Positions 17,767 to 41,735 of a DNA stretch of 64,000 bases are shown one piece after another (position 1 is the first letter of the stretch; every line of letters starts with the position of its first letter). The DNA is taken from contig CAWCKY010000003.1 of assembly GCA_963796275.1 (NCBI GenBank), positions 960,001-1,024,000 of the forward strand. The letters are read 5' to 3'. The notes under the pieces were generated by a model that was not told where the DNA came from, made no database searches, and saw only the letters and a program-made list of their open reading frames with translations. A program made the position numbers and the translations under genes. This DNA comes from an uncultured Acidobacteriota bacterium. GTDB taxonomy: Bacteria > Acidobacteriota > Blastocatellia > RBC074.

Positions 17767-18025
17767 AATTAAGGGCTGCCGAGATCAATCATTCCGGGCC
17801 TATCATCGTTTCCGTGATCGGTTCCGTTTCCCTGTTGAGCTACGAAACCGAGAGCTGGAGGATTATCGCGAGTCCGGGTCACATGGTTAGCACAGAAAAA
17901 GACTTACTCTGATGAAGAGTTATTTCAACCTCGTCGCTTTCTAAAACTCTCGATCAAGGTCAGAGATTGCCGCCGGTCAAATCCCGCAGCGAGGCGACGT
18001 AATAAGTAATTTTCATTTATTTATC

Positions 18026-20153
<2,128 letters not shown>

Positions 20154-37579: not shown

Positions 37580-38715
37580 TCATAAGAATGCAACGAAAAC
37601 TTCATTCGCCAATACTTTGCCCTTGCGGGAGATAACCATGTTTTCGCCGCTCAATTCGATCAAACCCGCCTCACGCAGTCGCTCCAGCTCGTCTCGATAA
37701 CGATCGACCACGTTCACGCCATACCGGTTTCGATGTTCGATCAGATCGACACCTTTTCTCAAGCGCAGACGCAAAAAGATGGCCTCGCTCTGCCGGTCTT
37801 CATCGTTGAGCTCGGAGCGCTCCACGACAGGAGAAATACCGCCCTCGACCATTTCCAGATACTCGTGGATATTACGCGTATTCGACCACCGGGATTCTCC
37901 ATCATATCCAGCAGCCGAAACTCCGAAAGCCCAGTATGGGGCCCCTGTCCAGTATTTCAGGTTATGGCGGGACTCGAATCCTGGGCGCGCCCAATTTGAT
38001 ATCTCATAGTGCTCAAAACCGGATCGTTCGGCTTCATCCATCAAAACGAAATACATTTCAACAGTCAGTTCATCGTCGATCGCACGCAATTCTCCGCGCT
38101 CGATGCGATGGAGTAGCGGGGCATCCCGGTAAAGTTCCAGCAGATACACAGACAAGTGATCCGGAGCCAGCCCGAACGCTTCGTCCAGATTGGCGCGCCA
38201 TATCTCCATCTTCTGTTCGGGCAGCCCCGCGATGAGGTCGATGCTGATATTCTCGAATCCCGCAGCCCTGGACATCTGAACTGCCGAGCGTGCGTCTTGC
38301 GCTGTATGTGTGCGCCCGATCATTTGCAATTCAAGATCACTGAACGATTGCACACCGAAGCTTACGCGATTGATTCCGATTGCGCGCAGTCTTCCGAGAT
38401 AATCCGCGGTGACGGATCCGGATTGGCTTCAATAGTGATTTCGGCGCCCGGATCGATTTCGAATTTTTTATGACAGGTCTCAACCAGACTCGATATCTGT
38501 TCGGTGGAGAGGGTAGTGGGCGTGCCGCCGCCGAAGTACAGTGTATCAACCGAGGTCATCCCCGGATTTGGCGTTATATTTTCAATTTCTCGCCCGAGAG
38601 CGGCGACATAGCGTCGCGCCACGTCCGATTCGTAACCTCCAGTGGCAAAATTGCAGTAGTGGCAACGTGTTGCACAAAAAGGTATATGTAAATAGATACC
38701 TGCCGGCTCGTTCAT
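37580..38715 (-). pseudogene. hemW: Radical SAM heme chaperone HemW split by a 1-nt frameshift near 38417 (probably a sequencing error)
   Basis: [31 protein letters not shown] in one frame; [25 protein letters not shown]...HYEISNW..HNLKYW in another. Confidence 0.85.
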
Positions 38716-38825
38716 AAAGGTAAACAGTATAGCATTTTACCGCGAATATCCGCCCGCTGATAATTTTTGTTCTGTTTTCTTGCAGGAAATTTCTATGGAG
38801 TTTCGCCGCTCATAAGCATATAATC

Positions 38826-39260
38826 ATCTGACTGACAATGTGATTTATGCCGGGGCTTCTCGATTTGCGGTTAGACGAGCCCGGATCAAATCAAGTCGAA
38901 CGTATCAGACTTTAAGTAGTTCAAGGAAGTTAGGCAGACAGATCATTTCGACGCTTCATCGTCGAAATATTGCACATCTTTGCTGATCCGATGCGAGCAT
39001 ATAGGCGTCAACGCCTGGATCAGCGTGTGGCCCATGGGGCCATTGGTGGTATCTCCCCCTGCTGTTGATTAATATCCGGCGCCAAGGAAACGTGCTGAAG
39101 AACCTTGTTCTGCTCATGCTTGCTGAGCTTTGTTCGGTTCTTTCAGCCAATATAATTGGGTAGTAGGTAGGCAAGTATTCAGTAGCAGATTTCTGGAGGG
39201 CACAAGTCTCCTTCAGGAGCCTGCGACCGATTACCTCCTCCTATTTCCATGAGGAGACCC
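38826..39260 (+). ncRNA. Candidate long structured leader or ncRNA upstream of a small membrane-protein ORF
   Basis: TATAAT at 38819-38824; more than 10 complementary segments in three apparent domains; G-U pairs favour the + strand. Confidence 0.5.
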
Positions 39261-39265
39261 CCCCA

Positions 39266-39424
39266 ATGCAAATTTTCGCCACCCTTTTCCTGCAGATCGA
39301 AGATAGACCGGATCTGACCTTCAACTACATCATCATTGCGATTCTATTAGTCATCGCGGCTATTCTGAGCATTGTCGTCGTACGTCGTCGCATCCGCGAA
39401 CGCGACGATGATTGGGAGAATTGA
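39266..39424 (+). CDS. 52-aa single-pass membrane peptide (below ORF-track cutoff)
   Basis: GAGGAG RBS; MQIFATLFLQIEDRPDLTFNYIIIAILLVIAAILSIVVVRRRIRERDDDWEN; 18 hydrophobic residues followed by RRRIR. Confidence 0.7.
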   Translation: MQIFATLFLQIEDRPDLTFNYIIIAILLVIAAILSIVVVRRRIRERDDDWEN

Positions 39425-39508
39425 TTGTGTAGGAGATAGCTCCAGGTTTTTCAAAAACACTATGCAGTGCTAGAATAATTCTCGAAGAATCAAAAAGGTT
39501 TCAGAGAC

Positions 39509-39967
39509 ATGGGTGAAATGTCGAAAGAGAAAGAGATATTCTTCGAGCATTTGCGTCGCGCGGGGTTCAAGAAGACCGCACAGCGGGAGTTGATCCTCGA
39601 AGTTTTTCTCAAAACAGAAGGGCACCTGAGCGCTGAAGATCTGTATCATCTTGTCAAAGTTGAAGACCCAAGCGTCGGGTTTACAACAGTCTATCGCACG
39701 CTCAAGTTATTGCATGAATGCGGTCTGGCGCGGGAAGAGAGACTGGGAGATGGCCGCAAGCGATATGAGCATGAATACAATCATCAGCATCACGATCATT
39801 TGATCTGCACCGACTGCGGCCGGCTGATCGAGTTTTACAGCGAGGTCATCGAGAAAAAACAGGATGAGATCGCTGCTCAATTCAATTTCAAGCCTACGCG
39901 TCATAGTCTGCGCATCTTCGGGATCTGCTCGAATTGCGAGGCCAAACGTAAAATCGCCGGTCGTTAA
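39509..39967 (+). CDS. Fur family metalloregulator
   Basis: [39 protein letters not shown]-terminal CSNC. Confidence 0.93.

Positions 39968-41663: not shown

Positions 41664-41735
<72 letters not shown>

Follow-up and report, generated by a model that had tools for sequence, protein, structure and literature searches.

The described systems closest to the locus analyzed here are the Tad/Flp pilus loci, which hold tadB and tadC, genes for platform proteins of the T2SS-F family (PF00482), and the genes of the Flp/Fap pilins (PF04964), proteins of about 50–60 amino acids (aa) with one hydrophobic helix and the prepilin processing motif G/XXXXEY. Two kinds of RNA resemble it in outline: the long structured 5' leaders and riboswitches of Rfam and the mRNAs of type I toxins, in which a small hydrophobic open reading frame (ORF) stands behind a long folded leader. 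We compared with these systems an interval of 793 nt (positions 38716–39508) in a stretch of 64,000 nt of DNA, referred to here as the window, from an uncultured Acidobacteriota bacterium (Blastocatellia; RBC074). Between hemW and fur, this interval carries a gene for a 52-aa single-pass membrane protein (the peptide) and, in front of it, a long folded leader, which an earlier reading of the letters alone (the sequence-only reading) had taken for a novel multi-domain cis-regulatory RNA. We consider it highly probable (roughly 0.85), on the strength of synteny and alignment, that the interval is instead the collapsed remnant of a Tad/Flp pilus locus, i.e. a deletion scar: relatives have the full Tad gene set, of which the window keeps the tadZ operon promoter and a recognizable piece from the 3' end of tadC.

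The Tad locus of relatives and its counterpart in the window

In Blastocatellia relatives, the order is promoter-tadZ-cpaF-tadB-tadC-peptide-DUF192. We examined 38 public loci of the peptide gene, three of which have no upstream flank and three no downstream flank. With the T2SSF and DUF192 families assigned by Pfam, tadC was the immediate upstream neighbor of the peptide gene in 35 of the 35 loci that have an upstream flank, and DUF192 was its immediate downstream neighbor in 35 of the 35 that have a downstream flank; the same order was found in loci L002–L008 and L054–L061. L002 (from genome G004) provided one of the seven TadC queries and one of the eight rows of a peptide alignment used below; the public loci gave the same results, and no claim is made on L002 alone. 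None of hemW, fur, and the cytochrome c gene was seen within 6 kb of the peptide gene in the public loci examined. To our knowledge, neither the 52-aa gene nor DUF192 is among the canonical tad genes, and the parts of the literature that our searches reached contained no description of the peptide family, or of DUF192, in Tad loci.

In relatives, hemW lies about 9.5 kb upstream of the tad promoter, and fur follows the peptide gene after about 8 kb. Three genera (genomes G001, G006, and G013) have the peptide gene and fur on one strand, 8–9 kb apart, indicating that this island layout is ancestral. A 32.5-kb contig (C65) of G001, a genome of the same genus as the one that carries the window (G000; 94.7% complete, seven contigs), is colinear with the window over five ORFs on each side, including hemW on the left and fur, the cytochrome c gene, and deoC on the right; of the 20 ORFs of at least 90 aa in the central 22.6 kb, none has a counterpart in the window. 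Thus, the island of 22.6 kb between hemW and fur in G001 corresponds to 793 nt in the window. By Pfam, the G001 island is a complete Tad/Flp locus with genes for the Flp pilin, an A24 prepilin peptidase, two TadE-like proteins, RcpC/CpaB, the secretin, a TadG-like protein, a TadZ-like ParA ATPase, the CpaF/TadA ATPase, TadB, TadC, the peptide, and DUF192, and it also encodes a 535-aa membrane protein, TPR, AAA, and VWA proteins, and a di-haem cytochrome c peroxidase. In G000, we found neither DUF192 nor orthologues of the G001 Tad island genes, and the only T2SS-F gene is of the two-domain PilC type, with no other T2SS-F gene of the Tad type. The sequence-only reading had correctly described the context (a Fur-family gene, a cytochrome c gene, and a divergent hemW) and had drawn from it a possible link to metal or heme; because a Tad island of 22.6 kb appears to have been deleted from between them, the adjacency of fur and hemW would be secondary, and the link is not supported. 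We note that the 535-aa membrane protein, encoded after DUF192 in the island (L068, 3195–4799; G001 C65, 19195–20802), has no Pfam match and is also absent from G000.

The layout hemW-relic-peptide-fur is common to the window and L052, a metagenome contig of 1173 nt that is 75% identical to the window and the sole relative of the scar that can be aligned over its full length; a metagenome scan with a single peptide gave no match, and a scan with an alignment gave this one locus. The scar is also present in both Logan contigs that span 38600–39800 (X1 and X3), which differ from the window at 72 and 76 letters, respectively. As the scar is present in all of these and the tadC fragment of L052 has different frame-breaking indels, the collapse appears to predate the window, L052, X1, and X3 lineages. 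Beyond this lineage, a blastn search of 40 related genomes with 38716–39508 detected no DNA conservation of the leader: matches were obtained in 11 of the 40 genomes, and every one was confined to 39246–39424, the ribosome-binding site (RBS) and the small ORF. As a neutral yardstick for comparisons with L052, we used the four-fold degenerate sites of three flanking and central genes, which are identical at 39 of 69 positions (57%); most non-coding segments are 42–61% identical between the window and L052.

Pieces of the tad operon around the 52-aa gene

The putative ancestral tad-operon promoter (38785–38824, + strand) consists of an invariant upstream motif (core 38790–38804), 14 nt, and TATAAT at 38819–38824. 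Because the same arrangement, the motif with a TATAAT-like box, stands upstream of tadZ in 21 unique sequences from relatives, and also occurs in L052, we regard the promoter at 38819 as the old tad-operon promoter, which in relatives stands some 4.9 kb upstream of the peptide gene. In all, the –10 TATAAT is conserved across 23 sequences, and the segment as a whole is 84% identical to L052, compared with about 42–57% for neutral segments. The TATAAT at 38819 had thus rightly been taken for a promoter in the sequence-only reading, as it is the –10 box of a family-wide motif. The exact motif occurs at a single site in G000, and among G000 matches with up to two mismatches we saw, by eye, none with a –10 box at the proper spacing. 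Further, a block of 15–18 nt at the –35 place (38790–38804 in the window, and 21 relatives) is invariant in nearly all relatives and unlike the sigma-70 –35 consensus. In this family, a dedicated activator or an alternative sigma factor for the tad operons probably recognizes this block, and the sharply conserved motif now defined for Blastocatellia tad operons gives a handle for finding the regulator.

The segment that follows (38831–38933, + strand; start placed from the –10 box) would derive from the 5' untranslated region (UTR) of tadZ and ends in a Shine-Dalgarno relic, AAGGAAG (38923–38929), without a start codon behind it. In an alignment with the tadZ upstream regions of the 21 relatives, the leader matches only near its end, at the Shine-Dalgarno block, and tadZ homology ends at the tadZ start codon. 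A pairwise comparison of 38825–38945 with the tadZ leader of G001 gave only an identity of 11 nt at a similar offset, which was equalled by 5 of 500 shuffles. We note that the tadZ leader of many relatives (L015, L017, L019–L021, L024–L026, L035, and L037) starts, about 15–45 nt after TATAAT, with a hairpin (CCTGA, 4–7 nt, TCAGG) that is followed by TTTCCGCGCCCG, with a matching CGGGC further on. Its loop differs from genome to genome, and the intact tad operon may thus have a conserved structure in its leader.

Directly behind the Shine-Dalgarno relic lies a piece of tadC (approximately 38934–39155, + strand) comprising codons ~240–311 and a relic of the stop codon, which was recognized by DNA alignment, tblastn, and a hidden Markov model (HMM). 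In tblastn searches, all seven TadC queries from relatives matched (E 1e-6 to 3e-5 in a search space of 1 kb), with two in-frame stops; an HMM of 31 TadC proteins matched over its positions 242–287 with E 7.6e-8 in the window and 1.3e-5 in L052; and, by blastn, the fragment matches intact tadC in eight genomes of another genus. From 38934 onward, a colinear DNA alignment with the final ~220 nt of the intact tadC genes of three genera extends up to the stop at ~39153–39155, and in the alignments the tadZ Shine-Dalgarno sequence is joined directly to tadC codon ~240. Relatives have a TadC frame of ~311 aa; as only ~72 codons are left here, with in-frame stops and a frameshift, we regard the piece as a pseudogene fragment and not as a member gene. 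The window and L052 carry different frame-breaking indels. The former tadC-peptide spacer (39156–39265, + strand) then extends from the stop relic to the peptide ATG, and 39149–39250 is the least conserved segment of all (42% identity to L052). Two other candidate explanations for the relic were rejected. A small conserved ORF within it, on either strand, is ruled out by indels between the window and L052 that are not multiples of 3, and a repeat, miniature inverted-repeat transposable element, or repetitive extragenic palindromic element is ruled out as the 793-nt interval and five sub-elements are each single-copy in G000.

The 52-aa membrane-protein gene (39266–39424, + strand) is intact and belongs to an uncharacterized Blastocatellia family. 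Its translation initiation region (39251–39265, + strand) has GAGGAGA at 39251–39257 and a run of seven C before the ATG, and the context AAGGAGA(C/T)CCCC...ATG was found in 49 of the 55 loci scanned. The ORF named in the sequence-only reading is a genuine coding sequence: over 35 unique sequences (of 49), codon positions 1, 2, and 3 have mean pairwise identities of 0.83, 0.95, and 0.52, and L052 agrees with the window at 99 of the 104 sites in codon positions 1 and 2 and at 32 of the 52 in position 3. An alignment of eight genera-level peptide sequences has 25 invariant columns, all 25 of which are carried by the window protein, and the protein also fits the family core, which consists of (E/D)RPDLT(L/F/V)NY, a hydrophobic helix, and RRR..E(R/K)DD(D/E)W. 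A profile search gave 194 database clusters at E ≤ 1e-3; none of the 120 clusters listed of these 194 has a Pfam domain, and their names are "hypothetical protein" or stray automatic ones. The window protein is 87–92% identical to four database proteins by BLASTP (90–96% in a second alignment, A2). Searches of NCBIfam and Pfam with the peptide gave sub-threshold matches to transmembrane and sorting-signal models alone, and the ESM Atlas returned the peptide's own cluster only, with no functional lead. In G000, the gene is single-copy and stands between the tadC fragment and fur and not in the position tadC-peptide-DUF192. Sequence comparison shows that purifying selection has acted on the peptide gene since the deletion, and, because this selection persists in a genome without Tad machinery, the function of the peptide would be independent of the pilus. 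The locus is thus a natural experiment in which the pilus machine would have been deleted while the promoter and a tiny membrane-protein gene were kept under purifying selection, which marks a family without a Pfam domain (194 database clusters) as likely to have a function beyond the Tad pilus. We note that the run of 5–7 C between the Shine-Dalgarno sequence and the peptide ATG (39251–39268 in the window, and 49 related loci) is conserved across genera and exceeds what an RBS alone needs.

The peptide resembles the Flp/Fap pilins in its size, its one hydrophobic helix, and the place of its gene inside the Tad locus, but it is ruled out as an Flp pilin on four grounds. No Flp_Fap match was obtained for the peptide even at E ≤ 10. 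The processing motif is absent from the peptide alignment, with P-DLT(L/F)NY in its place. The charges are reversed, in that the peptide has its basic cluster after the helix, from which the opposite topology is predicted. Finally, G001 has a separate canonical Flp gene, which matches Flp_Fap with E 2.8e-7 and 30.7 bits, just below the gathering score of 32.2.

We propose that deletions in this genome's lineage removed ~22 kb and spared four pieces: the tad promoter and the tadZ leader with its Shine-Dalgarno sequence (38785–38933); the last ~72 tadC codons, which would have been fused right behind this Shine-Dalgarno sequence and are now frameshifted (38934–39155); the old tadC-peptide spacer (39156–39265); and the intact 52-aa gene (39266–39424). 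The peptide gene would then be transcribed from the ancestral promoter, with a start near 38831 and a leader of ~435 nt that is largely derived from a pseudogene, and translated from the strong RBS that is typical of the family. Its product is predicted to be a single-pass membrane protein with the N terminus outside and a basic and acidic C-terminal tail in the cytoplasm, and its function would be independent of the pilus machinery. A scar of operon decay is of an ordinary kind; what is unusual is how exactly the losses left the promoter and one tiny gene in place. The locus is also a traceable case of a pseudogene fragment becoming the 5' leader of a surviving gene. Because the segments trace to pieces of the tad operon, the "multi-domain structured RNA" would be mostly relic sequence and no ancient regulatory RNA, and a false lead is removed, as the long folded leader beside fur would be no metal or heme riboswitch.

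Folding of the leader and alternatives to a plain scar

The stems named in the sequence-only reading exist, with 15 of 15 pairs found at or near the positions given for them, and the minimum free energy (MFE) fold of 38825–39270 (446 nt) reproduces most of them. Compared with shuffles, the claim that this region folds beyond chance stood in part. For the whole 446 nt, the folding energy is –148.4 kcal/mol, and shuffles average –134.4 ± 6.3 (z –2.21; equalled by 3 of 100), but the opposite strand folds better (z –3.05; 0 of 100). Domain 1 (38825–38940) is at chance (z –0.57; 54 of 200 shuffles as good), and the three-way junction (38976–39030) gave z –1.59 (14 of 200). Three hairpins, all on the + strand, did beat their shuffles. 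Hairpin A (38945–38968), which lies within the tadC relic, has a perfect stem of 9 bp and a loop of 6 nt (z –3.88; 0 of 200); hairpin B (39094–39147), in the last codons of the relic, has a stem of 11 bp with one bulged U (z –3.23; 1 of 200); and hairpin D (39157–39249) is a long imperfect hairpin in the former spacer that ends just before the RBS (z –2.80; 0 of 200).

Overall, conservation of the structure was not supported when the window was compared with L052. Of the 95 pairs of the sequence-only reading, 47 are unchanged, 14 are changed but kept, 33 are broken, and the remaining 1 is unpaired in the window itself, which leaves 94 that form there; of the 142 pairs of the MFE fold, 84 are changed, and 32 of these (38%) stay paired, which is the chance level. 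The stems lost in L052 are the domain-1 closing stem, TGATTT/AAATCA, AAGTC/GACTT, ATATTG/CAATAT, TTGGTG/CGCCAA, GCAG/CTGC, CTGGAGG/CCTTCAG, and the anti-RBS pairing. A few helices do persist. Hairpin A (z –2.28 in L052) retains its stem there, with a single G-C pair turned into G-U, and its loop has another length and sequence. The outer 8-bp stem of the three-way junction, GCTGATCC/GGATCAGC (38982–39024, + strand), has two one-sided changes to G-U and no broken pair, although its local fold is no better than shuffles (z –1.59 in the window and –0.95 in L052). Hairpin B (z –3.10 in L052) has the same bulged U and, in an RNAalifold consensus, two two-sided compensatory pairs, one one-sided change to G-U, and no broken pair. 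At the place of hairpin D, L052 has a longer hairpin (–61.5 kcal/mol, z –8.24) in a segment of 42% identity; the basal stem AGGTAG/TTACCT is kept with two two-sided changes, and the inner stems are broken or cannot be aligned. The palindrome of hairpin A is found at the matching position in none of the intact tadC genes aligned, and the tadC-peptide spacers of intact relatives are unstructured, with z between –1.60 and +1.42 in all 12 unique loci of this control and –0.93 in G001. We note that the arms of the long hairpin in L052 (557–660) consist of tandem heptamer-like units, GGTTGNC on one arm and the complement on the other, which suggests growth by slippage.

Several observations weigh against a scar that is only a scar. 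A purely neutral relic does not explain the four helices without a broken pair in L052 (hairpin A, GCTGATCC/GGATCAGC, hairpin B, and the base of hairpin D), the z of –7.46 on the + strand of the homologous L052 region (–4.20 on the – strand, arising mainly through the long hairpin at D), and the conservation of 38910–38985, which is ~90% identical to L052 compared with 57% at four-fold degenerate sites. With regard to the promoter, the –35 position at a spacing of 17 nt reads TGGAGT, which is not sigma-70-like and lies inside the invariant 15-nt motif, and the site was not picked by a consensus promoter scan. The loss of the Tad genes amounts to "not found" in a genome that is 94.7% complete, which is short of proven absence. 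Further, the number and order of the deletions, the transcription start site, co-transcription through the relic, and translation are inferred from the sequences.

The folding data bear most directly on the possibility that, after the collapse, hairpins A, B, and D and the GCTGATCC/GGATCAGC stem came under selection as RNA structure, a proposal that is compatible with an origin as a scar. Because four local helices persist in L052, some by compensatory changes, a lineage-specific structured leader is conceivable, though we consider it less likely than not. The four stems have 34 pairs, 9 of which are changed in L052, all still paired and 4 of them changed on both sides; the four one-sided changes in hairpin A, hairpin B, and the 8-bp stem all lead to G-U pairs on the + strand, where the other strand would have A-C. 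The survival of the hairpin A stem beside a variable loop, that of hairpin D at 42% identity, the advantage of A, B, and D over shuffles in both sequences, the high identity of 38910–38985, and the absence of comparable structure from intact tadC genes and spacers point the same way. Against this, a single full-length relative was available for alignment; the choice of helices was made post hoc, and overall the changed pairs (14 of 47 of the sequence-only reading and 32 of 84 of the MFE fold) are kept no better than chance; the opposite strand of the window folds better; and palindromes can be kept or perfected by template-switch mutation without any selection. Contigs of a further group (X4, 80% similar) leave 39133–39255, including hairpin D, uncovered, and one of them may skip 38926–39259 altogether, at a joint with only 23 letters on one side; both observations are too weak to use. 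Speculatively, a leader of this kind could shield the mRNA from nucleases or from Rho-dependent termination or could spare the RBS region long-range pairing, and the orphan tadZ Shine-Dalgarno sequence could serve as a ribosome-binding stabilizer. In its fullest form, the proposal would be that selection kept the tad promoter and the 52-aa gene during the loss of ~22 kb and reshaped the pseudogene into a structured leader (hairpins A, B, and D and the orphan Shine-Dalgarno sequence) that secures expression of a peptide whose function is pilus-independent and indispensable; on the sequences compared, this is a conjecture that we would sooner doubt than adopt.

The remaining alternatives come from the sequence-only reading and fit the locus much less well than a deletion scar does. 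Its principal proposal, a metal- or heme-sensing riboswitch that occludes the peptide RBS, is extremely improbable. CTCCTC (39235) can indeed pair with GAGGAG (39251), with G-rich competitors upstream, fur and hemW do adjoin, and the locus is like the long structured leaders of Rfam in having ~435 nt with several stable hairpins between a promoter and a small ORF. However, the anti-RBS segment is missing in L052 and in all relatives seen, in which the upstream regions are A/T-rich, and an occludable RBS is not supported; 39149–39250 is precisely the least conserved segment; the supposed aptamer is mostly a frameshifted tadC fragment (38934–39155) whose pseudogene origin can be traced base by base, and its domain 1 folds at chance; outside the closest relatives only the peptide gene is conserved; and the fur/hemW neighborhood is secondary. 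Rfam gave no match at gathering score in 38600–39600 and only two chance-level matches (14.9 and 11 bits) at E ≤ 10. A type I toxin-antitoxin-like module, with a small toxic and hydrophobic peptide encoded behind a long structured 5' UTR and accompanied by an antisense RNA, would be in keeping with the hydrophobic 52-aa product, the long leader, and the well folding opposite strand, but we found no evidence that supports it and consider it very unlikely: the gene is single-copy, its operon position tadC-peptide-DUF192 is fixed in relatives across at least eight genera, the RBS is strong, exposed, and family-wide, no conserved antisense promoter or element was seen, and the long leader is confined to the scar lineage. 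Also very unlikely is a separate small RNA made up of the first two domains, with the peptide mRNA starting from a second TATAAT at 39151–39156. The block 38876–39030 is conserved with L052, which would suit such an RNA, but the second box falls on what is left of the tadC stop codon, differs in L052 and is changed at 39153 and 39154 in X1 and X3, has no –35 sequence at acceptable spacing and was missed by the promoter scan, and domain 2 is not followed by a terminator (the scan gave one terminator-like site, with 2.0 expected by chance).

fur, hemW, and other features of the window

Downstream of the peptide gene, the promoter scan placed a fur promoter (TTTTCA, 17 nt, TAGAAT; 39448–39508, + strand) that overlaps a perfect palindrome, AGAATAATTCT (39472–39482). 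The segment 39460–39508 is 88% identical to L052, and the preceding 35 nt between the peptide gene and fur (39425–39459) are unconserved (42%). The palindrome is likely to be an auto-regulatory operator of fur. In G001, fur is immediately preceded by the di-haem cytochrome c peroxidase gene, and this adjacency hints that the fur product may be a peroxide-type (PerR-like) regulator.

On the other side, hemW (37580–38715, – strand) is read in two frames with one frameshift near 38419–38428. The NCBIfam HemW profile is split over two ORFs, and tblastn with the HemW of G001 gave two high-scoring segment pairs, covering residues 12–117 and 115–397 in frames –2 and –1; the switch is either a real frameshift or an assembly indel. 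Elsewhere in the window, Rfam identified a thiamine pyrophosphate (TPP) riboswitch at 18023–18249 (+ strand; RF00059, 65.5 bits) and a tRNA gene at 41664–41735 (+ strand; 69.1 bits).

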